Below are positions 21,401 through 41,370 of a stretch of 64,000 nucleotides of DNA, piece by piece. This stretch comes from Calditrichaceae bacterium. Lineage in GTDB: Bacteria; Calditrichota; Calditrichia; Calditrichales; JBFXGD01. Made by a program: the position numbers and the translations under genes. Positions within the stretch are counted from its first letter, which is position 1. Each line of letters starts with the position of its first letter. Below the pieces are notes generated by a model. The model saw only the letters and a list, made by a program, of their open reading frames with translations, was not told the DNA's origin and searched no databases. The stretch lies in NCBI GenBank assembly GCA_050173015.1, contig JBFXLE010000010.1, forward strand, positions 1-64,000, in the 5' to 3' direction.

Positions 21401-21447
21401 AAAATACCATCCGGCCTGAGGATAATCAAATCCTTTTAGCCGGATGG
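21401..21447 (-). terminator. Terminator closing the - strand regulon block
   Basis: Stem CCATCCGGC/GCCGGATGG with TATTTT tail on the - strand. Confidence 0.6.
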
Positions 21448-21526
21448 AGCGAGGGAGGTGTTTTTGGGGTATAAAATGTTATTTATTTAAATGTTTTAAA
21501 ATTGAATTTCTTTAAATTCCGGTTTC

Positions 21527-22780
21527 TTATTTCTGTACTGTCCGTACACAACGTACATAATTAAATATCCTGACCGCGTCGCCTTGCGGTCCGTGGCCTG
21601 TAGGATAATCATCCGGATTACCAACTTTGGGATCGCTGCGCTGGGCGCCGGCACCATGCACATCCTGCCACATTCCATTCATGTAACCCATCGCGCGCCC
21701 AAAGCTTACATAAACCGCAAAGGCGCCGCCAACCGATGACCAGTTGCTATGCGTGGTGCTTGTCCAATAGAACCCATAGTCATCCTGCCCGGCTTCATTG
21801 GTAATCAGGGTGCAGTTAAAAAGCGGATCGATGGCGGCAGAAGCGCTTGTTCCGGACGAATATGTGTAATCAACGATACTTTGCAGCTCTTTTGCATCCG
21901 GTAAGCGCCAATCGGTATAGCCCGCGTATTCAAGACTTTCCGCATAGCTCAGAGCGTCTTCCCAGTTCATGGCCGTTTTACTGTCATTTTGCATCCACAT
22001 CAGTCCGGTGGCGTCATCAGTGATCGTACTGTCGCCGTTATCGCTAAAATTATTTATACCGTATTCCGTATTGCCTCGGGTGTATAAAACAAAGAAGGTT
22101 TTTTCACCCGGTCCTAATGAGGTTTGCAGACCATACCCTTTGATGCGGCCATCGGCAAAATTTACCCCAAACAATAAATCTCCGCCGGTATATAGAGATG
22201 TCGTGGCAAATTGAGAATCAATAACGCGCTCACCGGCTTCCACATCACCATAGGCAAAATCGAAATATTCCGTATCAATAAAGGGAACGAGTTGGTCCGT
22301 TGACGCGCCTTCATAGCCGCTTGGGTCCACACCGCTGAACAGTATAAGTGAGTACAATTCTTTGATGCTTGGCAACCGCCAGTCATCATAACCGGCCTGA
22401 TCAAAATACTCGGCCCCGGCAAGCGCTTCCGAATATGTCATTTTATCATCCGCGTCAATATCCCCGTCACCATCCATATCCGGACTCTTAGCCCACATCA
22501 GACCGGTTACTATGTCTGTAATAGTCCCATCACCGTTATCCACATAATTTGTCTCGTTGTGTGAATACATGGCGTCCTGCCCGTAAAACGCGTCACCTTT
22601 TGATGGAGCCACCGTTACATTGTTGTTATCGTAGTATTCCGTTTGATTGGTACTCACAACAGGATAGCCGCTTATCTCAGACAGATTATCGTCAGTTACC
22701 TCTGTACTTGTTAACGCGTTATTGCACGCCGTAGAAAGAGTGAACACCAAAGTCAGCCATATTAATATTCTTGATTTCAT
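21527..22780 (-). CDS. DUF1566 (Lcl C-terminal-like) domain lipoprotein, two domains
   Basis: Lipobox STAC; twice DNGD.TITD..TGLMW...DWRLP..KEL; ends NYVRCVR. Confidence 0.85.
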   Translation of the reverse strand: MKSRILIWLTLVFTLSTACNNALTSTEVTDDNLSEISGYPVVSTNQTEYYDNNNVTVAPSKGDAFYGQDAMYSHNETNYVDNGDGTITDIVTGLMWAKSPDMDGDGDIDADDKMTYSEALAGAEYFDQAGYDDWRLPSIKELYSLILFSGVDPSGYEGASTDQLVPFIDTEYFDFAYGDVEAGERVIDSQFATTSLYTGGDLLFGVNFADGRIKGYGLQTSLGPGEKTFFVLYTRGNTEYGINNFSDNGDSTITDDATGLMWMQNDSKTAMNWEDALSYAESLEYAGYTDWRLPDAKELQSIVDYTYSSGTSASAAIDPLFNCTLITNEAGQDDYGFYWTSTTHSNWSSVGGAFAVYVSFGRAMGYMNGMWQDVHGAGAQRSDPKVGNPDDYPTGHGPQGDAVRIFNYVRCVRTVQK

Positions 22781-22809
22781 TTTTTTGTTCAGCTTTATAG
22801 TTTAAATTC

Positions 22810-23205
22810 TTACCTGCGGCCCGGTCTTTGTGGCCTGTCCGGTTTCTTGTCTTTCATATACGCTTCATATTTAGCGATTTGATCATCATTTAACAGTTCT
22901 TTAACCCGGTTATCAAAATCCTTTTTTAAATCTTCCATCGCTTCGCGCTGGCTTTCCCGATCGCCTTTATTCTCTTCCATTAATTCTTTCGCGTCCTCAA
23001 AATGCGCCATATACAGATCGGTTATCGCGGATTTCTGCTCATTGGTTAAAGTAAGCGCTTCAGCCAACTCATCTACCATTTTTACAATTTGTTCGGAATC
23101 GGGGAGCTTTGGCGGGCCTTGCCGCTGGGCAAACAAATTGCCGGTAATTATCAGACTTATCAGCATGAGCAACATCGTGTAAGTTCCAGATCTTTGCTTA
23201 ATCAT
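22810..23205 (-). CDS. Secreted helical protein, Spy/CpxP (LTxxQ)-like
   Basis: Signal peptide, LTLTNEQK and LLNDDQ motifs, P/R-rich tail. Confidence 0.7.
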   Translation of the reverse strand: MIKQRSGTYTMLLMLISLIITGNLFAQRQGPPKLPDSEQIVKMVDELAEALTLTNEQKSAITDLYMAHFEDAKELMEENKGDRESQREAMEDLKKDFDNRVKELLNDDQIAKYEAYMKDKKPDRPQRPGRR

Positions 23206-23251
23206 TGTGTTTCTCCTTTTGTTAAAATGATATTTTCTGTTCTATTACTTG

Positions 23252-23278
23252 AGACGTTGATTGGGAAAAAAACTTGTG
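23252..23278 (-). promoter_or_regulatory. ECF sigma promoter motif
   Basis: CACAAG-N16-CGTCT upstream of the CDS starting at 23205. Confidence 0.75.
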
Positions 23279-23317
23279 GTTGGATTTATTTTTTTTATCC
23301 GCGGGTATTTTATAGAT

Positions 23318-23351
23318 AAAATAACCCTTCACTAACAGGTGGTGAAGGGTT
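23318..23351 (-). terminator. Rho-independent terminator
   Basis: AACCCTTCAC/GTGAAGGGTT stem with T tail on the - strand. Confidence 0.7.
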
Positions 23352-23377
23352 AAGTACGTGGTATCTCCGCAACCCGG

Positions 23378-25147
23378 TCAGGAATTGACAAACGGCTGTT
23401 TTTCAAACTTCATGGTTCCGTCTTTTCCTTTATAAATATTTATCCATACACGCCAGTTCTCATCGTCCATATCAGGATAATCCAGCCGGTAATGACTACA
23501 GCGGCTCTCTTTACGCATAATGGACGCTTTGAGCTTCATCTCGGCGCTGATTATCATATTGGCGGTTTCATGCGCCAGTCTCAGCTCATGCAAATCGGTT
23601 GCTTTTAGCATCGGCATGTGATGATCGCGCAACTCTTCGATATAAGCCAAAGCGGCTTTTAACAGATTTTCCTTTTTGATATAAAGTATAAAGTTGGGAA
23701 TCATGATGCCCTGCAAAGTTTGTGTAACCCAGGCGGGGCTATAACCGGCTTCTTTTTTTAATGGCGCGAGAATCTCTTCCTGAACTTTATCCCGTTTTGA
23801 TTTTGAGATTTCAGACAATTCAACATTTTTTGAGTAATCGGCTGCCGCCTCCGCCGCTATGGCCCCCTGAACCGCGGAACCGGCTAAGGAGGATCCAATC
23901 TGTGTATAGATAGCCCCAGCCATATAAGATCCCAGTGCATCACCGGCCGCGTACAAGCCCGGAATATTGGATTCACATTTTTCATTAATCGGCACCAGTC
24001 CTTCGGATTTATGAATGGACATACCGGCGGAAGATCCGCCAACAACGGAACCGCCCATTCCCGGAGGTCCGCCGCCTTCACCATCAGGTCTTTTTCCCCC
24101 CGGCCGGGAACCTTCGCCACGAGGTGGCCTGTCACCTTCCTGTCTGCCATCGCCACCCTGAGGGTGGTCCTGGCTAAACTCGGCAGGCCGGTAAGGTCCT
24201 CCTTCAATTTGTTGAGATTGCCCCATTCCCGGAGGCCCCATCTGAACCGAATTCCCGCTCATATAGGCCATATAATTCAACTCAACACCCAAATCGTGGC
24301 GAATACCTACACCGGTTGTACCCGGTTTTTGTTCAAACATGCCATGCCAGCCGTCATAACAGGCCGCGGCATTGGTCGCCTGACCGGGATGCCCGTCGTT
24401 CCACTCTTTACCGGTGACTTTCGCGCCGATGTTATAGGCCATAACGGTCCCATCATGTGTGAGATCGCAAATGGGAAATCCATTTGGCTTAAAACCACCG
24501 GCCCCTGTACACAGAATAACACTTTTCGCGCGGAAAATGTGGACCTTTTCTTCATCCAAACTAAATCCCGCCGCCCCGGCAATACGGCCATTTTCCTTTA
24601 TAAGATGTGTGATGGTGATCCGTTCCATAACCGGTATATCGCGCTCATCAATGGGTTTGCGGAAAGAGTTATTGTACAGGTTGGAATCAAAGAAACCCCA
24701 TTCCCGTAACTCATTAACACGAGCCAATGAATGTTCAGCCACCTGGCGGGTATAAACCGGATTATTTGTACCAAGGGCAGAGCGGGAGACCGATTCTACA
24801 AACTCATCAAGCGTAAGATTTTCCTTTGATGAATCATACGCGAAAATGCCTTTCGCGAATGGTGTTTGCCCGGATGAGCCTAAGCGGCCTTTTGAAACTA
24901 GCAATGTCCTTGCCCCGGCGTCATGGGCTTTTACGGCCGCGAATAACCCGGCCATGCCGCCGCCTATCACCAAAACGTCGCTGTCTGTTTCGGTAAACTT
25001 CATCTTAGTGATATCCACTTTAGGGCGTTCTGAAGACCAACCGTGTTTTAATCCCACTGACGCGAGGGCCGCTAAACTTAAAGCGCCGCCGGCCATTGCA
25101 AAAAATTGACGTCTGGAAAGATCATTATTTTTACGCGGCTTTTTCAT
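23378..25147 (-). CDS. Tat-exported FAD flavoprotein of the SdhA/FrdA/AprA superfamily
   Basis: SRRQFF twin-arginine signal, DVLVIGGGMAG, ILCTGAGG, IPGLYAAGD, RKESRCSHYRLDYP. Confidence 0.88.
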   Translation of the reverse strand: MKKPRKNNDLSRRQFFAMAGGALSLAALASVGLKHGWSSERPKVDITKMKFTETDSDVLVIGGGMAGLFAAVKAHDAGARTLLVSKGRLGSSGQTPFAKGIFAYDSSKENLTLDEFVESVSRSALGTNNPVYTRQVAEHSLARVNELREWGFFDSNLYNNSFRKPIDERDIPVMERITITHLIKENGRIAGAAGFSLDEEKVHIFRAKSVILCTGAGGFKPNGFPICDLTHDGTVMAYNIGAKVTGKEWNDGHPGQATNAAACYDGWHGMFEQKPGTTGVGIRHDLGVELNYMAYMSGNSVQMGPPGMGQSQQIEGGPYRPAEFSQDHPQGGDGRQEGDRPPRGEGSRPGGKRPDGEGGGPPGMGGSVVGGSSAGMSIHKSEGLVPINEKCESNIPGLYAAGDALGSYMAGAIYTQIGSSLAGSAVQGAIAAEAAADYSKNVELSEISKSKRDKVQEEILAPLKKEAGYSPAWVTQTLQGIMIPNFILYIKKENLLKAALAYIEELRDHHMPMLKATDLHELRLAHETANMIISAEMKLKASIMRKESRCSHYRLDYPDMDDENWRVWINIYKGKDGTMKFEKQPFVNS

Positions 25148-25790
25148 TTTGGTTTAGCTCCCTTGTTTTTATCGGTTTCAAAAAATATGTTTTTAGAACA
25201 AGCATTTCACTGCTCATTGCCAGAATAATGATATAAACGGTCATGGCCAGGTTGGTATGACGACCGAGATCGATCATATGCCATGAGGCAATCGCGATAA
25301 AGATCATTGCCAAAATACCATGAATATATCTCCAGTTTATATAGCTCATAGACAACCTGTCGCGAAAGAATGAAAGTATGCCCAAAGTCAGCATTAAGCT
25401 CCACGCGATTAGCCCTAGTATCACCCCCAAACTGTCAAATGTAGTAATGATTGTGACAAATGCCTCCAGCGGGGTAACACCGGCTTCAAAAAATCGTGGT
25501 ACTACCAAAAGAAACGGGTGAACCAGGAAAACCGCTACTGCCGTATATCCAATGAATTTGTGGTATTTAACAATCCTGTTCATCTTGAACAATTTTACAG
25601 CCTTTCTGTTACTTCTTGTGAGAAAAAAAAGTCCAAGCATCAGGGGAAAGGCAAGAATGAACAAAATGGACAAGGATTCTTTCAAAACTGTTCGACGAGC
25701 GAAGTCTCCCAGGATATATATCATTAAAGGGAAACCAACAAAAAATCCCGCTACAGGAACAAACCAATCTTTCTTAGTATATTGCATCAT
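25131..25790 (-). CDS. Ferric reductase-like transmembrane (heme b) protein
   Basis: About 6 TM helices with paired His (YHKFIG...LVHP; WRYIHG...SWH); no FAD/NAD-binding domain. Confidence 0.8.
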   Translation of the reverse strand: MMQYTKKDWFVPVAGFFVGFPLMIYILGDFARRTVLKESLSILFILAFPLMLGLFFLTRSNRKAVKLFKMNRIVKYHKFIGYTAVAVFLVHPFLLVVPRFFEAGVTPLEAFVTIITTFDSLGVILGLIAWSLMLTLGILSFFRDRLSMSYINWRYIHGILAMIFIAIASWHMIDLGRHTNLAMTVYIIILAMSSEMLVLKTYFLKPIKTRELNQNEKAA

Positions 25791-25794
25791 TTTT

Positions 25795-26010
25795 TTACCC
25801 CCAGGAAACGATGACCGGAATCGATTTTTCCGGCGAAATGGTTATAGCGTCAACCGGACAATACATCCGGCAAAGATGACAGATTTGGCAATCGGCGGGA
25901 TACATGATAACCGCTTTTTTCGAATCGGGATCAAGACGAATCACATCTGTCGGGCAGGTCTCTACGCAAGTTCCGCAACCGATACATCCGTTTATGCTTT
26001 CTATTGACAT
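25795..26010 (-). CDS. 2x[4Fe-4S] ferredoxin (AprB-like)
   Basis: CIGCGTCVETCP and CQICHLCRMYCP. Confidence 0.92.
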   Translation of the reverse strand: MSIESINGCIGCGTCVETCPTDVIRLDPDSKKAVIMYPADCQICHLCRMYCPVDAITISPEKSIPVIVSWG

Positions 26011-26062: not shown

Positions 26063-26089
26063 TGACGTTTTTTTGGGAAATCTCTTGTG
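26063..26089 (-). promoter_or_regulatory. ECF sigma promoter motif
   Basis: CACAAG-N16-CGTCA upstream of the ferredoxin. Confidence 0.72.
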
Positions 26090-26230: not shown

Positions 26231-26464
26231 TTATTCCTGAGGTTCTTTGAAAACATGTTTTGCGGCAGGCCCGTAGATTTTTTCAGCACATGTTTGACAG
26301 ATCCCATGAGAAATGCGTTTTTCCAGCTGCAATTTTGAGATATCCATTAAAAACCGCGCCACATTAATGGGTATCCATTTATTATTAATTCTTACAGAGT
26401 GGCAGCCGGCGCACATTGTTATCATGTCTTTGTGGAGGCCCATGTTGGTTGTTTTTTCTCGCAT
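26231..26464 (-). CDS. Small CxxC...HGICxxC putative metal-binding protein
   Basis: MCAGCHSVR...W...ISHGICQTC, a motif usually seen at the C-terminus of PAS/REC sensor proteins. Confidence 0.65.
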   Translation of the reverse strand: MREKTTNMGLHKDMITMCAGCHSVRINNKWIPINVARFLMDISKLQLEKRISHGICQTCAEKIYGPAAKHVFKEPQE

Positions 26465-28028: not shown

Positions 28029-28055
28029 AGACGCTGATTCTGAATAAAACTTGCA
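28029..28055 (-). promoter_or_regulatory. ECF sigma promoter motif
   Basis: TGCAAG-N16-CGTCT upstream of 27952. Confidence 0.72.
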
Positions 28056-28148: not shown

Positions 28149-29534
28149 CTAATTCACGTAATTCATTACCGTACTATAGCGGCTGTTCACATGGGAGATT
28201 AAATAATTCACCGCCGTATTAAAATCGCTGTCAGACTCCAGGAATGTGTACTTATCCTGCTCGCCATTAGCGCCAATTACATACTCAGAAATCAGATTCT
28301 GGTAATATTGGTATTTGCTTGTCATTTTTGCCGGTTCAAACGCGGTCTCAACAACTTGTCTCAGATAAGTTTTGTAGCTGTTTAAATATTGCTCATCATC
28401 CAACAAATAGCGTATTAGAGGCCAGGAACTATTGACTTCACTACAGGAAACCGACAGAGCTCCCGTTTGTTTCCCTGTTTGCAGGGCTTCGTTGTTGTCC
28501 CAGGGGATCCATGTTAACCAGCTATGTTCAGGATCATTATAAAGATAATAATTATGAGGCATCCGGCCATAGGTATCCCAGTTTTGAACAGCGATATTGA
28601 CAGTAAGCCATTTTAGAAATCCATTCACATTAAAAACCGTTTCAAGGGAAGCCCTCCAGGAAGCGGCATTGGTTGTTCTTTCGGATGAATGCAAAACATC
28701 AAAAAGCGCTTCAACATCCGACCAATCACCGTCTTCATTGGTCTTCTTCTCAAAATAGGACGTGCTGAATGTATTGGCGGCAAAACTGGCGCCGGTGCCT
28801 TCCGGTTTGTAAAGGTTCCCGTCATTTTCTGTAAACTGCTCTTTTATCACCGTGTCATCCACAATTTCAATCATTGTATAAAGCCCAAAATATGTGGGTC
28901 CGTCACCATGATCGATATAAATACGGTAAAAGGCGGTTTGCGGCGCGGGTACACCAAAATCCCTGAAAATTTCCGGCACAACTTTTTCACGGAGTAATGA
29001 TTCGTCATCGAAATTACTGGAAAGAGAAAGTTCTTTAAACCCATAAAAGCGCTGATTGGTGATCTGCGGAATCTCATCTTCATAATAGTCAATATTAAGC
29101 CTTAATGGCAGTTTCCATATTCCACTTGCCCAGGTGGATTGTAAGCTGGAATTTCCTTTAAAACGAACACCAACCTGATACCATTCGATACCATCTAAAA
29201 AAACAGAGCAGGGGACATAAACCGGATTCTCGTTCGAGTCATCCGCGGGCGCTGTGACACGTGATCCGAAACTACCATAGTTCTGTTCCATATCATCCAG
29301 CATTACCTGCCAATTTTCGCTATCTATTACAAGATCCAAACGGTTCACCCGGTTTTGAGGAAAAACAATATCATAGTCGGGATCGGCGCTTTTCCCGTGT
29401 GTGGTTTCGGTCCAGTCAGGAGTCTCAAATTCCGTATCAATGACCGGCTGATTTTCGGTGCTGTTTGTACTTGTGTCTTCACAACTAATCAGAATTGACA
29501 AGAACAGCAGTACAGATAGAATTTTGTTATACAT
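28149..29534 (-). CDS. CotH kinase family lipoprotein
   Basis: Lipobox LISC; VGVRFKGNSS, NWDTY...HNYYLY...WIPWDNNEA. Confidence 0.9.
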   Translation of the reverse strand: MYNKILSVLLFLSILISCEDTSTNSTENQPVIDTEFETPDWTETTHGKSADPDYDIVFPQNRVNRLDLVIDSENWQVMLDDMEQNYGSFGSRVTAPADDSNENPVYVPCSVFLDGIEWYQVGVRFKGNSSLQSTWASGIWKLPLRLNIDYYEDEIPQITNQRFYGFKELSLSSNFDDESLLREKVVPEIFRDFGVPAPQTAFYRIYIDHGDGPTYFGLYTMIEIVDDTVIKEQFTENDGNLYKPEGTGASFAANTFSTSYFEKKTNEDGDWSDVEALFDVLHSSERTTNAASWRASLETVFNVNGFLKWLTVNIAVQNWDTYGRMPHNYYLYNDPEHSWLTWIPWDNNEALQTGKQTGALSVSCSEVNSSWPLIRYLLDDEQYLNSYKTYLRQVVETAFEPAKMTSKYQYYQNLISEYVIGANGEQDKYTFLESDSDFNTAVNYLISHVNSRYSTVMNYVN

Positions 29535-29562
29535 GTCCTTCTCCTTATGGGTATAAATTTTC

Positions 29563-31224: not shown

Positions 31225-31252
31225 TCATACCTCTACCATTATACCGTTCATT

Positions 31253-31930
31253 CTAAATCTGTTCTTCGTCAAAGAAGAGATTGATATTTTTTACACCATG
31301 TGAATTATCCAGGGCGCTTATAAATTCCGGGTTCTTATCCTTGTTCTTCAACCTGACATAATAAGATAGCTCCATTATACCCTGATTTTCTATGGTTCGT
31401 GTGTTGATCACCTTATACCGCCGGCAATATTTCTCCAGGATTGGCATGTAAGATTGGGGATCGCCGCCATTTGGCTGAAAAGAGAACTGCAGTAAATAAT
31501 CATCCTGCCGCGGAGAAGTAATTTTCGATTTTGCCAGTAACAAAATAATTATCCCGACAAACACGGACCCAAAGATGGCAAGTTTATAATATCCCACACC
31601 GGATGCCATACCGATCGCCAGCGCAAAAAAGATAAAAACTATATCCTGAGTATCTTTAACGGCCGTCCTGAAACGAATAATTGACATGGCGCCAACCAGT
31701 CCGAACGCGCGGGCAAGATTGTTACCAATAACCATGATAACAATGGCTGTGATCATTGTAAGAATGATCATTGAATTAACAAAAGCCGCCGAATACCCGG
31801 CTCCGCGATAGGATTTTTGATAAATATAGGCGATAAAAAGCCCGCAACACAAAGCGACGATAATGTTTTTCATTATTTCAAAAATTGATACAGGAAACAG
31901 GTTTAGACTTTGCATTTCATTAAACATCAC
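31253..31930 (-). CDS. DUF4956 membrane protein
   Basis: VIGNNLARAFGLVGAMSIIRFRTAVKDTQD signature. Confidence 0.92.
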   Translation of the reverse strand: MMFNEMQSLNLFPVSIFEIMKNIIVALCCGLFIAYIYQKSYRGAGYSAAFVNSMIILTMITAIVIMVIGNNLARAFGLVGAMSIIRFRTAVKDTQDIVFIFFALAIGMASGVGYYKLAIFGSVFVGIIILLLAKSKITSPRQDDYLLQFSFQPNGGDPQSYMPILEKYCRRYKVINTRTIENQGIMELSYYVRLKNKDKNPEFISALDNSHGVKNINLFFDEEQI

Positions 31931-32705
31931 AGCACTCCCTGCTTATAATCACATTCCGCCTCCTTACGCGTTTATTTTTAAACTCCGCGTGTGTTTCCAG
32001 AGACATGGTGTATTTTGACAATGCCTGCCGGTTGAAGCCATATTTGCTGATAAGCGAAATGATCCAGTTGGGCAGACTTCCAAAAAATTTTATTTCAAGA
32101 ATGAAGTGGTTGGTCAATGTAGATTTAACCTTATCTTCATTATAAAGCTGCTCCAGATCAGGAAAAATAACACTGCGTAGATTTTTATCAAATGTTAAAC
32201 GCAAAGAAGGATCCATTTTTCCAATAAAAGCTTCACGATCGTAAATAACCAAAACGACCGGACGCAGATTTTTTATGTAATAATAATAAAGAAATTTCCG
32301 CGCGTCTTTTTTCTCCGCCCCATTTCCACTAAACGACAGTACAAAATCATCTATGCGTCCTGAGGCTAGTGTTTTGGCAACATCAGTGTAATAAATCGGC
32401 ACCCTGATTTTCGATATACAATTTGTGTTTTTGTGTTTTATTTCCAGAAAAGTTATACTCTTTTTTGAACACTTATCATAGCCTCTGATTCGGTATTTAT
32501 TTCTGATTTTAACACCATCCAGTTTTTCGTTATAACAGGTAAACTGCGGTGTATCATAATAGATGCTTCTTACCGTGTATTGTCCGTCGCCGTGTCTTTT
32601 TGCAAAATTATCCAGCTCCATATAAGGACTCAGCTCTGTCCTGAGCTTATCAATAAGCGTGTTAGGGACTAAATATTTATATTCATATCTCGAATCCATG
32701 GTCAT
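31920..32705 (-). CDS. VTC-domain (polyphosphate polymerase/CYTH-like) protein
   Basis: RYEYKY, YTVRSIYYDT, KYRIRGY, FLEIK, LRLTFD, ILEIKF, SKY. Confidence 0.92.
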   Translation of the reverse strand: MTMDSRYEYKYLVPNTLIDKLRTELSPYMELDNFAKRHGDGQYTVRSIYYDTPQFTCYNEKLDGVKIRNKYRIRGYDKCSKKSITFLEIKHKNTNCISKIRVPIYYTDVAKTLASGRIDDFVLSFSGNGAEKKDARKFLYYYYIKNLRPVVLVIYDREAFIGKMDPSLRLTFDKNLRSVIFPDLEQLYNEDKVKSTLTNHFILEIKFFGSLPNWIISLISKYGFNRQALSKYTMSLETHAEFKNKRVRRRNVIISRECCDV

Positions 32706-32707
32706 TC

Positions 32708-33766
32708 CTAATTTAAAATAATCTGTTTCAGGTAATCCGGAATGGACAGCGGGCCGCAGTTAATTTTTGCCGGCGTAAACAAACCGGAAATAAAGTCATT
32801 TGATATTGAATTAACAGTCGCCAAAACGATAATACACTGTTTCCCGCCGATGAGCTGTAATACCGGCTGCGTCGTCTGAACTTCACCCGATAATCGTGAT
32901 TTTAGTTCAGGTGAATCAAATAAAACAGTACCGCCCTTCGTGACAAAAGCAGCGTTCTCCAGCGGAACAGGGATACAAGCGACCGCCGAATCAAAATTTG
33001 ACAAGACCAGAAGCGTGTCATCGGAAAATGACCTTTCAACGCGGCCACCAAATGGCGAAATAATCAGATTTTGCGAATTTATCTGTTGTTTTAAAAAGGA
33101 AATCTCATTTTCAACCGCGTTAATTTGTTTAGTCAATTTGTGTATTTCCTCAACTTTCTCACCACTCATGCTCGATTCCAGTTCAGCCTGCCGAACGTTT
33201 ACGGCTTTTTCCAGGGTATTTAATTCATCGGCGGCTATCTGGTATTCTTCCCCGGCGATTAGATCTTTATCAAACAATTCCTTAAGCCGCGCGGTAATTT
33301 TTTTCTGTTTATCTAATTCCGATTGGGCCATGGCCAGCCTTTCTGCCGCCTCCCGCACTTCCGTTATTTTGTCGCCACTCATGCCTGCTTTTAGGGTTGC
33401 TTTTAATATTTGGAGTTCACCTTCCAACTGAATAAGGTTTTCATGCTTATTGCTGGAGTAGATGATACCAAGCGTATCTCCCTTCGCCACAATCTGTCCG
33501 TTTGAAAGATCCGGATTCAGGGTTAAAACGAATGATTCGCCCCTTTCGAACGAAGTAAGCTGATATGAATTATTTATTCCGCTGCTAAAATTAACCGTGC
33601 TGTTCAAAATCTCCCCGCCATTACCGCGGGACAATACCCATTGTTGAGCGGGCAAAATTTTTGCGACACTGTCTATGGAATAAGGCACTTTAATTGGCAA
33701 AAAGAAAATACCCAAAACAGTGAGAACAATGATGAGGATACTTAGATAACGATTATTTTTTTTCAA
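32708..33766 (-). CDS. HlyD-like membrane fusion/adaptor protein
   Basis: N-terminal TM, GQIVAKGDTL lipoyl half-motif, long coiled coil, IISPFGG; TTG start. Confidence 0.75.
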   Translation of the reverse strand: MKKNNRYLSILIIVLTVLGIFFLPIKVPYSIDSVAKILPAQQWVLSRGNGGEILNSTVNFSSGINNSYQLTSFERGESFVLTLNPDLSNGQIVAKGDTLGIIYSSNKHENLIQLEGELQILKATLKAGMSGDKITEVREAAERLAMAQSELDKQKKITARLKELFDKDLIAGEEYQIAADELNTLEKAVNVRQAELESSMSGEKVEEIHKLTKQINAVENEISFLKQQINSQNLIISPFGGRVERSFSDDTLLVLSNFDSAVACIPVPLENAAFVTKGGTVLFDSPELKSRLSGEVQTTQPVLQLIGGKQCIIVLATVNSISNDFISGLFTPAKINCGPLSIPDYLKQIILN

Positions 33767-33834: not shown

Positions 33835-33861
33835 AGACGTTGTTTGGTGAGAAAACTTGCG
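33835..33861 (-). promoter_or_regulatory. ECF sigma promoter motif
   Basis: CGCAAG-N16-CGTCT upstream of 33766. Confidence 0.75.
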
Positions 33862-33961: not shown

Positions 33962-36283
33962 TTATTTCATCAATATCATCCGTTTTGTTTCTGAAAGGGA
34001 TCCACTCGTCAGCATATAAAAATAAATGCCGCTGGGCATATTTTTAGCATCCCATTGCATGACATATGTTCCTGCGGAGAGTTGTTTGTTGACAAGTGTT
34101 GCCACCTGCTGCCCTGTAATATTGTAGATTTTTAAAGATGTAAAGTTTGAAGAGGGCAACTTGAATGAAATATTCGTAGTTGGATTAAATGGATTGGGAT
34201 AATTTTGCGAAAGGTTAAACTGATCAGGTAGTTCTGATATCTGATCATCAGGAATACCGGTGATTCCGTCATTGTTCTCTGCTGAAAAAGTGGGACTCAT
34301 TTGCACAAAAGATCCTGTCCCATTTGGATAACGGCCGGTTGATATATCGTCTGTTTGTTCTCCAAAACTCACTTCATCAATAATTGTTGTATCACTACCC
34401 GATAAGTAAATAGTTTCACCGGAGCTTGAAATTTTTAGATCCGCATGTAATCCTGCCTGATCTTCATCTTTATCCGCCCAGACAATTAAATATCCCTTCG
34501 CAGAAATTGTTGTATCAGGAAAGGCCCAGAGAGACAGATCATTGCCATCATCTGATAGAAAGTATCCATTTAATGAAATATCCTCATCGGAATTATTATA
34601 GAGTTCAATCCAGTCGTCGTATTCTCCATCCTGGTCTGTTACTGTGGTCTCATTCGAAGCCATAAATTCATTGATAACCAATTCAATAGCTAATGGATCG
34701 GAACTGGTGGCAATAGTATAGAATTCATATTGTGCCCGTTCAGGTGAAAACTGCCCTGCATTGTCATTTTCGGCATAGATATAATATTGAACCTCCGAAT
34801 TGTTGATTTCCAGGTATGTACCATACGTGCCATCATTGGCGGATCCGTCACCATGTGCGCCGTCATCATACATTTCTACTAAGCTAAAGGGAGCTATTGT
34901 TTCATTTCGATAACCCAGATATACCGCGTTTCCATCTGCCACGGAAGCAGAGATTGCAATGGTTTCGTTAACCGCGGGACTTTCATCCGACAATGCAATA
35001 CTTGAAATCGTGGGTGCTGTTTCGGTGAAATCAGAAAGCGCCAAAAGGTAACTACTTCTTCCATTCATCAAATTGGTGATGCCGGGAAAAGTCATGCTTT
35101 GCGGACCAAAACCGCTAATTATATCGGAAGTTAAATTATTTAGAAAATCATTGTAGGTAAAGAATTTATTTACATCAGCCCGAACGGAGGCGTCGATTAA
35201 TGATTGAAATGTTAACGCGGTGTCATAGTACTCCCCATTGTCAAAATTTTCTAAAAGCATGGTTTTGTAATGAGCGAGGTACATACGCTTGTACATTGGT
35301 ATGCTTAGCAATTGTTTAACTAATGGGAAATTTGAGTCAGAAGAATGGAGCAAGTGACTCATCTGCTGTTTCGAAGATGTCGTGTTTAGCGTTGAAGAGC
35401 CTGTTTGTGAGAATACCCCAAAAGACTCATTCAAATCCCAAACTATCGGCAAAAATTGTTGATACTCACTTCGGTATAAATAATAATTTTGAGAAAATAT
35501 GCCAATGTAACTATCCAGGTTTACGATTGCATTGTCGAAGGCAAGCATCCACAAGGCTCTGTCCACATCTAAAATATTTTCAATGTCTGAGATATTGTAG
35601 CTTAATGTATCACAAAGGTCTATCAACTCCCGCCAGCCATAATCCGATTTCATTTCATAGGCATCGTAATAATCTGTGCTGTCTTGACCAAGGTATACCA
35701 GATTGGGGTAATTACCTGATTGTGTAGGTGCGCCATCAGGCGGGCTGCAATCGAAATAGGCATTGTCGTTAGAGCCAAATCGGCTCTTAGCAAATTTCTT
35801 TGAAATGGATTCGGTGTTGGTGTAGAGGCCAATTAAGGTTCCGTTCACGTAAAGGTTGGCAAAATTGGAAAGCGGCGCATCCATGTATTTTCTGATGATG
35901 TAGAAACCCAAAACATCGCGCAAAAACGAGGGATCGTTGTATCCATTGGCCAATTTGATATCAGTGTATCCATCATATTCATGGTCTTTGTAAGTATCCA
36001 GCTCGATGTGCCATGGATTTTTTACCTGATCGGCCCTATACGAACTGTTGCCTTTGTATTTTACGCCAACGCTATCGAATACTTCTCCATTGATAGTAAC
36101 ACTTTGAGCCATTATGTAATCTCCGTCTTCGGAATATTGAGCATCCAAAAGTGCATCCCAATTGCTTTCCGCAAACGTAATTTCAATCGTTTGAATGGTC
36201 TCTAAATCGTAAAAATCCTGACTATAGATATTTGTTGATATTATTAGAAAAACAAAAACAGTTAAAATGTAGATATTTTTCAT
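33962..36283 (-). CDS. Secreted CotH kinase with lamin-tail domain and C-terminal T9SS-type-A/FlgD-Ig secretion domain
   Basis: Signal peptide; VGVKYKGNSS, NLDSY...NYYLY...PIVWDLNE; MYDDGAHGDG..DGTY; LVINEFMASN...DWIELYN (LTD); QNYPNPFNPTTNI...SGIYFY. Confidence 0.9.
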   Translation of the reverse strand: MKNIYILTVFVFLIISTNIYSQDFYDLETIQTIEITFAESNWDALLDAQYSEDGDYIMAQSVTINGEVFDSVGVKYKGNSSYRADQVKNPWHIELDTYKDHEYDGYTDIKLANGYNDPSFLRDVLGFYIIRKYMDAPLSNFANLYVNGTLIGLYTNTESISKKFAKSRFGSNDNAYFDCSPPDGAPTQSGNYPNLVYLGQDSTDYYDAYEMKSDYGWRELIDLCDTLSYNISDIENILDVDRALWMLAFDNAIVNLDSYIGIFSQNYYLYRSEYQQFLPIVWDLNESFGVFSQTGSSTLNTTSSKQQMSHLLHSSDSNFPLVKQLLSIPMYKRMYLAHYKTMLLENFDNGEYYDTALTFQSLIDASVRADVNKFFTYNDFLNNLTSDIISGFGPQSMTFPGITNLMNGRSSYLLALSDFTETAPTISSIALSDESPAVNETIAISASVADGNAVYLGYRNETIAPFSLVEMYDDGAHGDGSANDGTYGTYLEINNSEVQYYIYAENDNAGQFSPERAQYEFYTIATSSDPLAIELVINEFMASNETTVTDQDGEYDDWIELYNNSDEDISLNGYFLSDDGNDLSLWAFPDTTISAKGYLIVWADKDEDQAGLHADLKISSSGETIYLSGSDTTIIDEVSFGEQTDDISTGRYPNGTGSFVQMSPTFSAENNDGITGIPDDQISELPDQFNLSQNYPNPFNPTTNISFKLPSSNFTSLKIYNITGQQVATLVNKQLSAGTYVMQWDAKNMPSGIYFYMLTSGSLSETKRMILMK

Positions 36284-36355: not shown

Positions 36356-37576
36356 TTACTCATGCCTGAGCGCCTCAATAGGATCCAGAGCCGCGGCCTT
36401 ACGCGCCGGATACCAGCCAAAAAAGACTCCGATAAACGAGCAAAAAAGGAATGACAATAAAATGGACTCCATTGTAATCAGCACCGGCCAGGCCATGATA
36501 TTTTCAACAGTGTTCGAAGCCAGTATACCCATGACCACACCAATAACGCCTCCGGTTACACTCAACAAAACAGCTTCAAGCAGGAACTGCATTAATATAT
36601 CTTTGCCTTTGCCGCCAATAGCCAGTCTAAGTCCTATTTCACGGGTGCGTTCGGTGACGGAAACATACATGATATTCATGATACCAATACCGCCCACAAC
36701 CAAAGATATCGCGGCGATTGATCCAAGCAGCACCAACATCATTTCGGAAATGGATCCAAATGTACTGATCAATTCAGCCTGAGTCCTTATTTCAAAATCA
36801 TTGTCTTCACTATCCTTTAATTTATGTGAAAGACGCATATTCTCTTCAATCTGCGCGGTTGCCTCATCGATGTACTCTTCAGAGACAGCGGAAGTGACAA
36901 TCGCCCGCAAATAGGTCTGCCGTGTAATTCTTTTCATAACGGTGGTGTAAGGCGCCAGCATGATATCGTCCTGGTCCTGGCCAAAGGTATTTTCTCCTTT
37001 TTCTTCCAGTACACCGATTACTTTAAACGGTATTTTTTCAAAGCGGATGGTTTGTCCGATCGGATCAATATCGTCGCCAAATATATTCTCGACAACAGTC
37101 TGTCCAATCACGACAACTTTTGCGGCGTTGTTTATTTCCTGGGATGAGAATGAACGGCCGCTGGCGATATCATACTTTTTGATATAGTTATATTCCTCGT
37201 TTCCACCATTTATTTGAGTCGGCCAGTTATTCGTTCCAAAGATAACCTGACCGGAACTTTCAACTTCAGGCGATACAGCTTCTAACAGACTGCTGTTTTC
37301 ACGAAGAATGTCCACGTCTTTCAGTACCAGGGTTTGCGACATTGCACGTCCCTGCTGAACCCCGCCCCTGTCTTTGCTTACAGGCATTATGTTAATAAGA
37401 TTTGTACCCATGGAAGATATTTTTTCCTGGATACTGGCATTGGATCCTTCTCCGATAGCAAGCATGGCGATAACCGATGCCACTCCTATAATGATTCCCA
37501 GCATCGTGAGAAACGAACGTGTTTTGTTTCTTTGAATAGCTGCTATGGCAATTTTAATTATAGTTAATATTTTCAT
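36356..37576 (-). CDS. MacB/FtsX-type ABC transporter permease
   Basis: RSFLTMLGIIIGVASVI, GGIGIMNIMYVSVTERTREIG, PARKAAALDPIEALRHE. Confidence 0.95.
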   Translation of the reverse strand: MKILTIIKIAIAAIQRNKTRSFLTMLGIIIGVASVIAMLAIGEGSNASIQEKISSMGTNLINIMPVSKDRGGVQQGRAMSQTLVLKDVDILRENSSLLEAVSPEVESSGQVIFGTNNWPTQINGGNEEYNYIKKYDIASGRSFSSQEINNAAKVVVIGQTVVENIFGDDIDPIGQTIRFEKIPFKVIGVLEEKGENTFGQDQDDIMLAPYTTVMKRITRQTYLRAIVTSAVSEEYIDEATAQIEENMRLSHKLKDSEDNDFEIRTQAELISTFGSISEMMLVLLGSIAAISLVVGGIGIMNIMYVSVTERTREIGLRLAIGGKGKDILMQFLLEAVLLSVTGGVIGVVMGILASNTVENIMAWPVLITMESILLSFLFCSFIGVFFGWYPARKAAALDPIEALRHE

Positions 37577-37602
37577 TTTTAATTCTCGTTTTATACTTAT
37601 TA

Positions 37603-38370
37603 TTATGCATCAACTAATGTTTGAAGAATGGCTTCTTCTTCTTTTAAATAATCAAGCGCCCGCAGGGCATTTGTTTTTGTCTCTACCTGTATATCGTTAA
37701 TTATTCGGCCGTCCCGGAAAACAACATTTCTTTTTGTAAAATCCGCGATATCGGGCTCATGAGTTACAAAGACTATGGTTATCCCGTTTTCATTTAACTC
37801 CTGGAGCAGAGCCATAATCTCGTATGAAGTCCTGGTGTCCAGATTACCGGTTGCTTCATCGGCCAGAATCAGTACAGGATCGTTTACCAGCGAACGGGCG
37901 ATGGCCACACGCTGCTGCTGTCCGCCGGACATTTGATTGGTAAGGTGATTCATACGGTCCGCCAGACCGACTGCCTCCAACGCGTACTTCGCTTTTTGGC
38001 GGCGTATTTTTGCGTTAATCTCAGGATTGTACATCAACGGCAATTCCACATTTTCCAGGGCAGTGGTTCGCGGTAACAGGTTATACGACTGAAACACAAA
38101 ACCAAGTTTAGTACTGCGTATCTCCGCCAATTGGTTTTTATTAAGTGATTTTACGTTCGTACCATCAAGCCGGTAGTCGCCTGATGTTGGCCTGTCGAGA
38201 CAACCAAGAATATTGAGCATGGTTGATTTGCCGGATCCGCTGGCGCCCATAATGGCCACAAATTCACCCGCATTTATTGTTAGGTCAACACCGCGCAGCG
38301 CACTGACTATTTCAGTCCCCACGGGGTAATCTTTTTGAAGATTTTCTATTTCAATTATTTTATTATTCAT
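37603..38370 (-). CDS. MacB/LolD-type ABC transporter ATP-binding protein
   Basis: [37 protein letters not shown]. Confidence 0.95.
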
Positions 38371-38430
38371 TTTTTTACAATTCTTAATTTTTGTCAGGTT
38401 TATGTTTATGAATTTTTAATTTTCTAACTG

Positions 38431-39708
38431 TTACCTGCCCGGGCGTCCCGGACCTTCCTGGACAAACGGGCTTTGTGTTTCTTCGCTTTTTGTAACACTA
38501 TCGTCCGTGTCGCCGCCCATTTCCATGGAAATTATAACCTGGTCACCTTCATTCAATCCCGAAATTATTTCAACGCTTATACCATCCGTTAAACCGGTTT
38601 CTACTTCAACAGGCTTGATAAGCGATCCGTCTTTAACCCAAACACGTTTGATGTTTTCAGGTTGCTCATTGGGAGCTTCAGTTTGTCCCGCTGTTTGCTG
38701 TGAACCGCTGGCAGGGCGTTGCGGACGTTCACTCTCCGGAAGTCTGTCGAAATAGCCGGCCATTTGCTCGCGCTCAGGTGTAAAACGCAAGGCTTTTCCC
38801 GCTACCACCAGCGCGTCTGTTACTTCTTCGATATAAACGGTGATACTGGCCGTCATGCCCGGTTTTAATTTTAGTTCGGGGTTCCGCGCCGAAACGATCA
38901 CGGTATATGTGATAACATTTGATGTTTCCGTTGGTTGTAACCTTACTTCTGTAATAACACCTGCAAAAGTTTCATCGGGAAAAGCGTCTACAGTAAATTC
39001 CACCCGCTGTCCTTCTTTTACCATACCGATATCTGCTTCATCCACATCGGCTTCAACCTGCATTTCCGAAAGATCATTGGTGATAGTAAACAATTCAGGC
39101 GTGCTCATACTGGCTGTAACGGTTTGCCCTTCTTCAACCGCGCGATTAAGCACAAGCCCGTCGATAGGTGAATAAATATTGGCATAAGCCAAATTTAGTT
39201 GTGCTTTATTTAAATTGGCATTGGCCGATTTTAAGCCTGCCTGGCTTTTCTTATAATTATATTTGGCCAGGTCAAAATCGCTTTGTGACAACAAACCTTT
39301 TTCAAAAAATTCTTCATTCCGCTCAAAGCCGGCTTTTTGATATTCAAGTTCAGCCTGCGCATTGAACAAATCCGCTTCAGCGTTTTCCAGGCTGGATTGA
39401 AGTGTGGATTTGTCGAGTTCGGCAATCAATTGCCCCTTTTCGACTTTCGAATTAAAATCCACATAAATCTTTTCAATAACACCAGAAACCTGGGTTCCAA
39501 CAACTACCGTATTTGTTGCTTCCAGGGTTCCGGTAGCGGTGATGGTGTTGTTTACCGCACCTTTCGCTACGGTTGCTGTCTCAAAAACGTATTCGCTCGA
39601 ATTGATTCCCTCATACAAAAAGGCAAAAGCATATGTGGCTAAAAGAAGGACAGCCATAATGGTAATGATTCTTTTGTACTTTAGTAATATATTTCTCATA
39701 ACATTCAA
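38431..39708 (-). CDS. MacA-like efflux periplasmic adaptor subunit
   Basis: VGTQVSGVI...VDFNSKVEKGQ, IYSPIDG, VDEADIG, LKPGMTA. Confidence 0.93.
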   Translation of the reverse strand: MNVMRNILLKYKRIITIMAVLLLATYAFAFLYEGINSSEYVFETATVAKGAVNNTITATGTLEATNTVVVGTQVSGVIEKIYVDFNSKVEKGQLIAELDKSTLQSSLENAEADLFNAQAELEYQKAGFERNEEFFEKGLLSQSDFDLAKYNYKKSQAGLKSANANLNKAQLNLAYANIYSPIDGLVLNRAVEEGQTVTASMSTPELFTITNDLSEMQVEADVDEADIGMVKEGQRVEFTVDAFPDETFAGVITEVRLQPTETSNVITYTVIVSARNPELKLKPGMTASITVYIEEVTDALVVAGKALRFTPEREQMAGYFDRLPESERPQRPASGSQQTAGQTEAPNEQPENIKRVWVKDGSLIKPVEVETGLTDGISVEIISGLNEGDQVIISMEMGGDTDDSVTKSEETQSPFVQEGPGRPGR

Positions 39709-39741: not shown

Positions 39742-39768
39742 AGACGTGAATTCAGAAAAAAACTTGCG
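39742..39768 (-). promoter_or_regulatory. ECF sigma promoter motif
   Basis: CGCAAG-N16-CGTCT upstream of the macA-like gene. Confidence 0.75.
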
Positions 39769-39790
39769 CGGGTAGCTAAAAAGGAAGTGT

Positions 39791-39830
39791 AAAAAAACAA
39801 AAAGCCTTTCATTTTTTGATGAAAGGCTTT
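39791..39830 (-). terminator. Rho-independent terminator
   Basis: AAAGCCTTTCA/TGAAAGGCTTT stem with T tail. Confidence 0.75.
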
Positions 39831-39847
39831 GCTACTAACAAATATGA

Positions 39848-40426
39848 TTATCTGTTTTCAGGATGTGGTGGCGGTCCCTTGCCGGCAGGCGGAGGTGGAG
39901 GTCCTTCAGCATCAGGTGACGGCGGAGAAGCATCATTAATCATTCCGGTTGGAGCGTTTTTACGAAAAAATTCATTTAATAATATTTTTAATTTATCCTG
40001 CTGCTCAGGTTTGCATAATTTTTTAAGGTCTAAAAAATGTTGAAATGTAATCTTCTCAAGCCGCGCCTGCTTTTCCTGGGCCAGCGCTAATAAAGAATCG
40101 GATAATTCCTGTTTGTGATTCTCCAACAATACTTCATCAAACATTTGTTTTTTTATACGACTGATATCCTTCTGCAATTGCACTGCTTTTTGACGATGCT
40201 CCCTTCGTAGTTTTAAATATTGTAAGGACTGTGTTTCATCGAAATCCAGTTCCGCTTTTAACAATTCTTGTATTCGATTTGCTTCTGTGACCGGATCGTT
40301 CTGTGCTTTTTGCGGTCTCGAGCCATCCGGCCGCCCCATCCATAAAACTGTTAAAGAAGAAATGTTTAAGATTAGTAAAACAATGACTGTTATCCACAAA
40401 TAGCGTTTTTGTTTAAAAATATCCAT
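39848..40426 (-). CDS. Membrane-anchored periplasmic heavy-metal sensor / Spy-CpxP-like protein
   Basis: TM LLILNISSL, helical ELDFDETQ...CKPEQQ, Pro-rich tail; third gene of the ECF cluster. Confidence 0.75.
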   Translation of the reverse strand: MDIFKQKRYLWITVIVLLILNISSLTVLWMGRPDGSRPQKAQNDPVTEANRIQELLKAELDFDETQSLQYLKLRREHRQKAVQLQKDISRIKKQMFDEVLLENHKQELSDSLLALAQEKQARLEKITFQHFLDLKKLCKPEQQDKLKILLNEFFRKNAPTGMINDASPPSPDAEGPPPPPAGKGPPPHPENR

Positions 40427-40435
40427 GTGATTATC

Positions 40436-40762
40436 CTAATTAATATCAAAAATAGTGCTTTGATTTTTTTCCAGGTTTAAATCGTTGCTCAGCAATTCAA
40501 TTAATTCCGTCCGCGTATTGGCTTGTTCCGCCTGATTAGAATCGTTCAAATACCAGAATGCTGTACTTAGATTCAAAACCACTAAAGCGGTAAGCATGGC
40601 CGGTCTAAGAATGGCGAAGAACACATTTTGTTGATTCTGCTTTGCTTCCAGCCGGGCTTGCACACGTGTATAGAAATACGGATTTGGCGGTAATTTTTCA
40701 GCCTGATCAAATTGCTCCAGAGTCCTGGAAATTTCATGCTCGATTTTATCTTTTTTATTCAT
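40436..40762 (-). CDS. Putative anti-sigma factor (single TM)
   Basis: PNPYFYTRVQARL motif then TM; directly downstream of the ECF sigma. Confidence 0.75.
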   Translation of the reverse strand: MNKKDKIEHEISRTLEQFDQAEKLPPNPYFYTRVQARLEAKQNQQNVFFAILRPAMLTALVVLNLSTAFWYLNDSNQAEQANTRTELIELLSNDLNLEKNQSTIFDIN

Positions 40763-40784
40763 ATTTTTATCTCCTCATTTTGTT

Positions 40785-40811
40785 AGACGCTCATCGTTTT
40801 CAAATCTTGCG
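40785..40811 (-). promoter_or_regulatory. ECF sigma promoter motif
   Basis: CGCAAG-N16-CGTCT between the sigma stop and the anti-sigma start. Confidence 0.75.
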
Positions 40812-40815
40812 CTGT

Positions 40816-41370
40816 TTATTCAAATTTTTCATAATAGTCATACAACAGTTTATGCAGATTTTTCTTTGAACGATGCATCAGCGCCTCTACGGCTGAAAGT
40901 GATAAATTCATAATATCCGCGATTTCTTTATTGCTGAACCCCTCGTATTTGCTTAGCGTAATTGCCGTTTTTTGGTTCTCAGGAAGCTGATCTATTGCTG
41001 AGTCAAGAATCTGTTTCCGCTCTTTTTGCTCCATATTTTCTTGCGGGTTATCGTTATCGGGTAAGATAATTTCTTCTTTTTCATCATCAAATCCGAACAG
41101 GGAAGTGAGTTGCGCAAAGCGTTTTTTGCGTTTTTTTTTGCGGATAAAATCAAGCGATTTATTTACGGCTATGCGGTAAATCCATGTTGACATTTCAGAG
41201 TCTTCACGAAAATGGGCAAGCGATTCATAAACCTGGATAAATACTTCCTGAGCCAAATCATCCGCGTCTTCCTTGTTTTTCACAAAACGAAAACAGGTAT
41301 TGCGCACATTTTCCTGATACGCTTCAACAATTTTTCTAAAATCGGTAACCTGCTCCATTGATGTCTTCAA
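40816..41370 (-). CDS. ECF RNA polymerase sigma-70 factor
   Basis: DADDLAQEVFI, STWIYRIAVN (region 2); LPENQKTAITL...SNKEIADIM (region 4). Confidence 0.95.
   Translation of the reverse strand: MKTSMEQVTDFRKIVEAYQENVRNTCFRFVKNKEDADDLAQEVFIQVYESLAHFREDSEMSTWIYRIAVNKSLDFIRKKKRKKRFAQLTSLFGFDDEKEEIILPDNDNPQENMEQKERKQILDSAIDQLPENQKTAITLSKYEGFSNKEIADIMNLSLSAVEALMHRSKKNLHKLLYDYYEKFE

Follow-up and report, generated by a model that had tools for sequence, protein, structure and literature searches.

Which promoters does the sigma factor of extracytoplasmic function (ECF) type encoded at 40816..41370 of this Calditrichaceae contig read, and what kind of switch does it serve? The window analyzed here comprises 64,000 nucleotides (contig JBFXLE010000010.1 of assembly GCA_050173015.1, positions 1 to 64,000), and the sigma gene heads a 20-kb cluster in which one motif, YRCAAG-N16-CGTCW, recurs six times. 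An original prediction held that these copies are the promoters of a self-contained regulon of that sigma. Here, we report that the six sites are very probably promoters of their cognate sigma, a reading based on the motif, its placement, its conservation with the sigma family, and the agreement between one sigma residue and one promoter base. All genes and sites of the cluster lie on the - strand, and statements about cited papers refer to the available passages of those papers.

Results

Six copies of the motif lie at the heads of transcription units

The pattern search returned exactly six matches in the window, at 40785..40811 (P1), 39742..39768 (P2), 33835..33861 (P3), 28029..28055 (P4), 26063..26089 (P5), and 23252..23278 (P6), which are the six sites originally predicted, each with a 16-nt spacer. 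In 100 shuffles of the window, the pattern occurred 0.16 times on average and twice at most, so the six copies exceed chance. The genome (4,336,749 bases, 54 contigs) holds eight copies of the strict pattern, and the two outside the cluster lie within a gene or far from any gene. The alternative spacers of 12–15 and 17–21 nt gave 2–8 genome copies each and none in the window. Since six of the eight genome copies fall within 18 kb of the window and few copies occur at any spacer, the signal is one of clustering, not of a genome-wide excess.

All six sites are intergenic, each just 5' of a same-strand gene, in agreement with the original prediction. P1 starts 4 nt behind the sigma stop codon and precedes the anti-sigma and Spy-like genes, and the sites at 23252, 28029, 33835, and 39742 directly follow a hairpin with a T-rich run, as had also been claimed; a simple terminator scan recovered just two of these four hairpins. 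The site at 26063, the weakest match, is preceded by a decayed hairpin. The T-rich run said to follow every -35 box was found as a direct TTTT in four sites, and the remaining two carry AGATTT and ATTTG. Among the gaps scored with a position weight matrix, the six site-bearing gaps reached 17–26 and every other gap at most 9.6. Transcription starts follow a pyrimidine-purine rule, and when the first C of CGTC is set as -13, the predicted starts consist of a T followed by a purine at all six sites (+1 at ~40776, 39733, 33826, 28020, 26054, and 23243 for P1 to P6). The predicted promoter would thus comprise a -35 box RCAAG, a T/A tract, the 16-nt spacer, and a -10 box CGTCWA.

When scored with a matrix derived from 65 sites in genomes other than this one, the window sites rank 1, 2, 3, 4, 6, and 9 genome-wide, and rank 5 has no real gene downstream. 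Outside the window, a single site scores above 20, and it faces no real gene. These results support a regulon that appears to be essentially local in its own genome. Two outside candidates were rejected: C1:177268 (score 22.1, CATC) is antisense and points into a gene, and C46:8300 is located inside another sigma gene.

The motif accompanies the sigma family across phyla

The sigma factor is 184 residues long from a TTG start, or probably 180 from the ATG at 41358. It contains sigma2 and sigma4 (Pfam Sigma70_r2 and Sigma70_r4_2) and lacks sigma3, which places it among the ECF (group 4) sigma factors. It was found in 12 of 86 genomes of the phylum (E <= 1e-50), so its distribution is patchy. 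Its closest named relatives are mostly labelled Calditrichaeota, viral contigs gave one distant match (25% identity), and the genome itself has 20 sigma2 matches. Upstream of the sigma gene, the best matrix score within 440 nt was -6.1, and no sigma70-type site was found there on the same strand. The presence of a site behind the sigma gene and of none ahead of it suggests that the sigma drives its inhibitor and not itself.

For comparison, 80 genome loci of related sigmas (48–76% identity) were collected from Calditrichota, Ignavibacteria, Chlorobi, Chitinophagaceae, other Bacteroidota, KSB1, Marinimicrobia, Gemmatimonadota, and Chitinispirillaceae. The strict motif with the 16-nt spacer occurs 39 times in 26 of these loci, and other spacers give 0–4 occurrences. 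Within -30..+130 of the sigma stop codon, the motif is present exactly in 29 loci, with at most one mismatch in 54, and with at most two in 72, whereas 41 of 2000 random 160-mers contain it at one mismatch or fewer. The same placement at spacers of 14, 15, 17, and 18 nt was seen in 0, 0, 5, and 4 loci, respectively, and the exact motif lies upstream of the sigma gene in merely 9 of 78. The family consensus is RCARG-N16-CGTCWA. The conservation that had been put forward as a check at related loci was therefore found, and its most regular form is the post-sigma site.

The loci L042 and L057, on contigs titled Acinetobacter and Citrobacter, carry a Bacteroidota-type locus, and the L042 site equals a Niabella site; these contigs are probably mis-binned.

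A further observation concerns the terminators. Those within 23290–39830 and in L090, L099, L191, and L009 share a GCCCTT(C/T)A...T(G/A)AAGGGC stem, and judging from these sequences terminator and promoter look as if they travel as one cassette. The stem common to several genomes indicates that such cassettes have been copied, and the repeat could then have arisen through duplication of a cassette of terminator plus spacer, or else be the operator of an unrelated regulator. We regard this as very improbable, because both boxes and their 16-nt distance are fixed while the spacer sequence varies, the site also stands directly behind sigma stop codons where there is no terminator, and its -10 base tracks the DNA-reading residue of the sigma, as described next.

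A sigma residue and a promoter base agree

In an alignment to RpoE, AlgU, and SigW, Asp74 of the DxxR motif of the window sigma aligns with RpoE Asn84. Mutagenesis has indicated that Asp at this type of position activates mainly -13C/-12G promoters, and that Asn, in ECF11_987, activated all -12G promoters (Todor et al., 10.1101/2020.06.23.168245). We surveyed 204 sigma rows, with a promoter called in 149 and one misaligned row set aside. Asp at position 74 occurs with CGTC in 109 of 112 rows, Asn with TGTC, GGTC, or GCTC (a first base other than C) in 25 of 25, and Glu with CATC in 10 of 11. Position 74 is the top-ranked column for the first and also for the second -10 base. For the -35 variants CAAG and CAGG, no clean associated column was found among the sigma residues. 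With Asp in the window sigma and C at each of the six sites, these sites are assigned to the window sigma.

The Glu-for-Asp subfamily, with CATC behind the sigma, is represented by L030, L039, L077, L121, L148, L149, L154, L156, L167, and L172, and this pairing was not met in the published passages on ECF promoter recognition.

Several points weigh against the assignment. The 80 related loci share ancestry, and Chitinophagaceae make up a large part of them, so that their counts overstate independence. The close relative G007 (sigma 80% identical) has a degenerate site behind the sigma, GCATG with a 17-nt spacer, whereas that of G046 is exact. The residue-base agreement reflects few independent events: in a tree co-change test, run after dropping three rows (two frame artefacts, one truncated), there were two Asp/Asn pairs on supported branches (p 0.5), and the Glu/Asp pairs agreed in 0.7 of 2, the test being underpowered. 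A -13C to T change left the binding of Tt-RpoE1 unaffected (PMC3397946), so that -13 may discriminate less than assumed. The score of the modelled sigma/anti-sigma complex, described below, may stem from resemblance to CnrH-CnrY, a pair of solved structure. Finally, two paralogous ECF systems of the same genome, with sigmas 42% and 36% identical to that of the window, could also fire these sites.

These paralogs, at G000:C1:11477-13570 (L202; sigma 11477-12016) and G000:C3:125181-133403 (L201; sigma 125181-125735), each comprise an ECF sigma, a zinc-finger-like anti-sigma, and a Spy-like protein. Both sigmas have Asn, and their stop codons are followed by YGCAAG-N16-TGTCT, one base from the window motif; the C1-type paralog occurs in 40 of the 86 genomes of the phylum. 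A TGTCT site is also carried by a Spy-TolC-MacAB operon at G000:C31:3869-9449 (L203), and in G071 an operon of similar build, next to an Asp sigma, is preceded by a CGTC site. As an Asn sigma can read all -12G promoters, the paralogs may read CGTC sites, and not the reverse. From the sequences, such one-way cross-talk onto the six promoters may occur, with a chance that we put somewhat below even.

A stronger form of this idea is that the six sites are read mainly or equally by an Asn-type paralog, within a shared three-sigma envelope network. The common layout and TGTCT sites of the paralogs and the C31 operon, the broad activity of Asn in ECF11_987, and the similar operon behind a CGTC site in G071 are consistent with it. 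Nevertheless, we consider it unlikely: all six sites have the C that is tied to Asp and are clustered at the Asp sigma, all 25 Asn sigmas have a base other than C at their own promoters, and the motif accompanies the family of the window sigma into distant phyla. Some added cross-talk is compatible with reading by the window sigma, and dominance by a paralog is not favoured. Given the near-identical promoters of two same-genome paralogs, the window sigma may not be the exclusive reader. The proposal of a self-contained regulon thus holds in that the sites are local and promoter-like.

The genes behind P1 resemble a membrane switch

In the 176 loci examined, the two genes behind the motif form a conserved core, the +1 gene being present in 108 and the +2 gene in 103. 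The +1 gene of the window (40436..40762) encodes a putative anti-sigma of 108 residues, with a short, two-helix cytoplasmic part, one membrane helix by hydropathy (residues 47–65), a conserved P-F/Y-x-T-R motif, and no Pfam match. In the complex model of the sigma with residues 1–48 of this protein, the score was 0.76 (best control, 0.02), a mark that was reached by 116 of 157 solved pairs and by 2 of 215 mismatched pairs. The runs shared at least 95% of contacts, the predicted local distance difference test (pLDDT) value of the partner was at least 84, and both sigma domains were touched. A profile search for solved relatives of the anti-sigma returned none, and there was no sequence match to CnrY in the PDB.

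The +2 gene (39848..40426) encodes a membrane-anchored, periplasmic protein of 192 residues with a CnrX/Spy/CpxP/ZraP-type fold, a putative sensor or co-regulator. Pfam Metal_resist matched under its cut-off (E 4e-4). The family profile matched Spy (E 9e-6), CnrX (3e-4), NccX, and CpxP, the CnrX-fold matches ranging from E 3e-4 to 2e-3. For the structural model (pLDDT 86), the fold search placed CnrX first (template modeling score 0.73–0.78 by target, E 0.24), with no match reaching E<=0.001. These results are those of a membrane-anchored, CnrX-fold protein.

The membrane helices of both partners contain an invariant Asn, Asn64 of the +1 protein (71/71 rows) and Asn21 of the +2 protein (102/102 rows), and a helix-helix contact between the two is possible.

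The likeness to CnrX raises the alternative that the trio, as CnrYXH does, truly senses metal and that its targets provide a metal-resistance or metal-immobilising response, by efflux or by phosphate or polyphosphate precipitation. CnrX is both the top fold match and a profile match, and conserved residues of the protein include His130 (86/103 rows), His77 (56), and Cys138 (97). At related loci, the motif is followed by SCO, multicopper oxidase, and YHYH genes, and such a reading has been given to ECF groups whose +2 gene is a "heavy-metal resistance" gene (PMC7826278). In contrast, of the CnrX metal ligands His42, His46, Glu63, His119, and Met123 (PMC6851896), the family profile has a counterpart for His119 alone, which is His130 (numbering inferred from the ligand spacing), Spy outscores CnrX by profile (E 9e-6 vs 3e-4), and no resistance-nodulation-division (RND) metal pump, P-type ATPase, or cation diffusion facilitator gene is annotated among the window targets. 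The metal signal suggested originally gained no support from a CnrX-like protein that retains one of five ligands, and we rate the metal-sensor alternative as a minority possibility. As for the cue itself, there is about an even chance that it is stress on periplasmic proteins or on the envelope; a metal or another cation bound at a non-CnrX site is clearly less likely, and something else again slightly less so.

The predicted targets are exchangeable envelope modules

Behind P2 lie the genes of a MacAB-type tripartite ATP-binding cassette (ABC) exporter (36356..39708; adaptor 38431-39708, ATPase 37603-38370, permease 36356-37576) and a secreted CotH-family kinase of 773 residues (33962..36283) with a lamin-tail domain and a C-terminal sorting domain of the T9SS (type IX secretion system) type. 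P3 precedes a five-gene operon (28149..33766) encoding a membrane-fusion-protein (MFP)-like protein of 352 residues (32708-33766), a VTC-domain protein (31920-32705), a DUF4956 membrane protein (31253-31930), a Cthe_2159 lipoprotein (29563-31224), and a CotH lipoprotein (28149-29534). The VTC and CotH proteins match Pfam above cut-off, and their alignments to solved structures are weak or partial. The 352-residue protein, previously labelled HlyD, has a weak membrane-fusion-protein match only, below all cut-offs.

P4 is followed by a stand-alone PAS-like protein of 172 residues (27434-27952; Atlas features 0.97 to PAS clusters) and a 255-residue lipoprotein with a lipobox (26624-27391), neither of which matched Pfam or NCBIfam. 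P5 precedes a redox module (23378..26010) of a 2x[4Fe-4S] ferredoxin (25795-26010), a six-helix ferric-reductase-like membrane protein (25131-25790), and an SdhA/FrdA/AprA-like flavoprotein with a twin-arginine translocation (Tat) signal (23378-25147). P6 precedes an exported helical protein of 131 residues (22810-23205), Spy-like by inspection and with no significant family match, and a DUF1566/Lcl_C protein (21527-22780). A 77-residue, Cys/His-containing open reading frame (26231..26464), between a terminator-like hairpin and P5, is probably outside the regulon, the best matrix score in its upstream gap being 9.6. The PAS-like/lipoprotein unit behind 28029 had been omitted from the targets originally named.

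In other genomes, the modules recur in varying sets. G007 and G046 share the sigma, the core, MacAB, a second promoter, and MFP-VTC-DUF4956-CotH genes, and G046 adds a promoter with Spy-like and DUF1566 genes. In G001, a member of the same genus whose contig stops short of the sigma, the modules for the secreted CotH and for the PAS/lipoprotein pair are missing, as are the promoters that go with them. At the P2 position, the motif is present in seven of seven aligned loci, and at P6, before the Spy-like gene, in five of five. P3 is kept in G007 and G046; G001 lacks it and has these genes fused directly onto its MacAB unit. P4 is missing in G001 along with its module. P5 is identical in G001, and the order CotH-promoter-ferredoxin is also found in G038.

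In distant phyla, where operons were walked automatically and distal genes are less sure, the motif is followed by Spy-like genes in 52 loci, an outer-membrane barrel in 25, YHYH in 11, and DUF1566 in 6, and in few loci by VTC, CotH, SCO, multicopper oxidase, or ASST. Among 160 general loci, DUF1566 was found in six and CotH in three; within their flanks of at most 10 kb, many of them short, and at the thresholds used, there was no MacAB, Cthe_2159, or flavoprotein. Taken together, sequence comparison indicates that Spy-like, DUF1566, CotH, VTC-DUF4956, and MacAB genes recur behind the motif elsewhere and that the flavoprotein and PAS units are local additions. The idea of one envelope-level response agrees with targets that are mostly envelope or exported proteins, but the comparison points to a conserved three-gene core with exchangeable modules rather than one fixed set.

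With a stricter pattern, seven of ten other genomes had 3/3, 3/3, 2/2, 2/2, 1/1, 4/6, and 2/4 of their sites at the sigma locus, and three had no sites. In G062, the genes behind the two distal sites encode a Spy-like protein and a lipoprotein, so that containment at the sigma locus is usual and not universal.

Genomic setting

The cluster lies 2.4 kb behind tRNA-Phe, and restriction and toxin-antitoxin genes adjoin it. Its GC content (41.9%) is close to that of core genes (42.2%), no duplicated tRNA-Phe end that could mark an att site was found, and one of 23 other loci scanned has a tRNA. Mobility of the cluster is plausible.

Several features of the surroundings were recorded. At 41513-43437, pieces of RAYT/IS200-like transposases alternate with 12 copies of a 60-nt tandem repeat and with three repeats of 287 nt, and at the other end of the regulon, 21394-21502, a decayed RAYT 5' end is seen by inspection (77% over 109 nt). 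A low-GC (35%) defence cluster at 6273-21177 includes type I restriction-modification, RhuM-family, and AAA proteins, an AbiEi-type antitoxin gene, and an IS200-like transposase. Farther away, 53726-56764 encodes a UvrD helicase into which an RNase T-like exonuclease domain is inserted, and 59997-62173 encodes a DUF692 (MbnB/TglH/ChrH) enzyme, its DUF2063 partner, and an upstream open reading frame of 178 residues, possibly a cluster for a ribosomally synthesized and post-translationally modified peptide or for metal stress.

Discussion

A proposed model of the switch

From the arrangement described above, we infer transcription from the six sites, sequestration of the sigma, and sensing by its partners. 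The sigma would head a CnrYXH-like membrane switch. In the resting state, the short N-terminal part of the one-helix anti-sigma would wrap sigma2 and sigma4, and the membrane-anchored CnrX/Spy-fold protein would sense a periplasmic cue. The released sigma would then transcribe the anti-sigma and sensor genes from the promoter behind its own stop codon, providing negative feedback with no positive loop in this genome, and would also transcribe the five further units of exported or envelope proteins.

A more far-reaching proposal combines three parts: that widespread CnrX/Spy-type switches escaped promoter prediction because their promoter lies behind the sigma gene; that an Asp/Glu/Asn code (CGTC, CATC, TGTC) operates with one-way cross-talk in one genome; and that the output is extracytoplasmic phosphorylation, in which VTC and DUF4956 proteins would make polyphosphate and pass it across the membrane to exported CotH kinases, with surface proteins, glycans, or minerals as the substrates to be modified. 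As a whole, this proposal is speculative and rather improbable.

The sites provide a precise candidate promoter for an uncharacterised sigma family of Calditrichota, Ignavibacteria, Chlorobi, Chitinophagaceae, and several candidate phyla. Cultured members of the family are found in Niastella, Niabella, Arcicella, and Prosthecochloris. A promoter search confined to the sequence upstream of sigma genes overlooks whole families, and the three natural paralogs are suited to probing a single-residue -13/-12 code. The inducing cue, once found, would give one physiological context to bacterial VTC, DUF4956, non-spore CotH, Cthe_2159, DUF1566, and YHYH proteins.

Comparison with known systems

Published ECF motifs derive from regions upstream of sigma genes or operons (10.1101/2020.06.23.168245), a place in which most loci of the present family carry no site. 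The single-helix, no-Pfam anti-sigma at +1 and the LTXXQ or heavy-metal-resistance protein at +2 are also described for ECF03 (s10), ECF111, ECF281, and ECF290 (PMC7826278). ECF03 is found mainly in Bacteroidetes and some Chlorobi, and the window trio agrees by description with its subgroup s10. However, the promoter given for ECF03, TTAAACC/TC, differs from the family consensus reported here, as do those listed for ECF111 (TTGAACCT/GTCTAAA), ECF281 (GGAACTT/GTCTAA), and ECF290 (ACGG/CGT). Half-motif likenesses are seen in ECF218 subgroups (TGCAAG/CGACA), ECF289 (CCCAAGGA/CGTCTxA), and ECF21 (GCAACC/CGTCT), and in the supplement text of the same paper CAAG occurs three times, in the available part never as RCAAG paired with CGTC. 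The Bacillus subtilis SigV/SigM/SigW/SigX promoters likewise have a CGTC-type -10 box, a T tract by the -35 box, and overlapping recognition by paralogs (PMC5758882), and Tt-RpoE1 likewise has an N16 spacer and the DxxR motif (PMC3397946), whereas the -35 box of the window sites ends in AAG and not in the usual AAC.

Two further motifs were considered and set aside: the ECF motif from differential RNA sequencing of Chlorobaculum tepidum (10.1101/172254) is of a different, GGAAC..GTT type, and SM6 of Flavobacterium psychrophilum (PMC9723704) has a CGT box but drives T9SS genes.

The cotH-polyphosphate polymerase (VTC)-DUF4956 trio is also known beside pel operons (10.1101/768473) and, in NELoc-2 of C. 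perfringens, beside a SigI-type sigma (PMC2879425). The window targets differ from these in having no pel or glycosyltransferase gene and in adding an ECF promoter and MFP-like and Cthe_2159 genes.

As in sigH-rshA of Corynebacterium glutamicum (PMC3489674), an internal promoter, here predicted to be read by the sigma, precedes the anti-sigma gene; there, the sigma gene is under other promoters and a shut-off loop has been proposed. In that system the anti-sigma is a soluble redox protein and the 83 genes of the regulon are dispersed, in contrast to the membrane trio and local regulon predicted here. The regulon of the ECF sigma SCO3450, on genomic island 6 of Streptomyces coelicolor (10.1101/247056), is likewise contiguous and self-contained within an island-like segment; it was shown by induction, whereas the one here is predicted, and the genes are unrelated.

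The closest parallel is CnrH/CnrY/CnrX of Cupriavidus metallidurans (ECF291), which has the same combination of an ECF sigma, a short single-pass anti-sigma (a putative one in the window), and a membrane-anchored CnrX-fold protein, together with a CGT-containing -10 box; in our model, the two anti-sigma helices touch sigma2 and sigma4. The differences are that the sigma gene comes first here, that one of five Ni/Co ligands is kept, and that a MacAB-type ABC exporter takes the place of the RND pump of the CnrCBA type. The window sigma is also distant from CnrH (E 4e-11), its match being weaker than those to AlgU, SigW, and RpoE. By analogy, the trio would work like CnrYXH in layout, and it is not a member of that system by metal site or targets.

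No account of this motif, sigma family, or regulon was found in the literature searched, in which subscription papers were mostly outside the search. The view that no characterised regulon has such content therefore stands for the motif and target set, which were not found in print, and has to be qualified for the design, each element of which has a precedent: a CnrYXH-like trio, an internal anti-sigma promoter, and an island-borne regulon.

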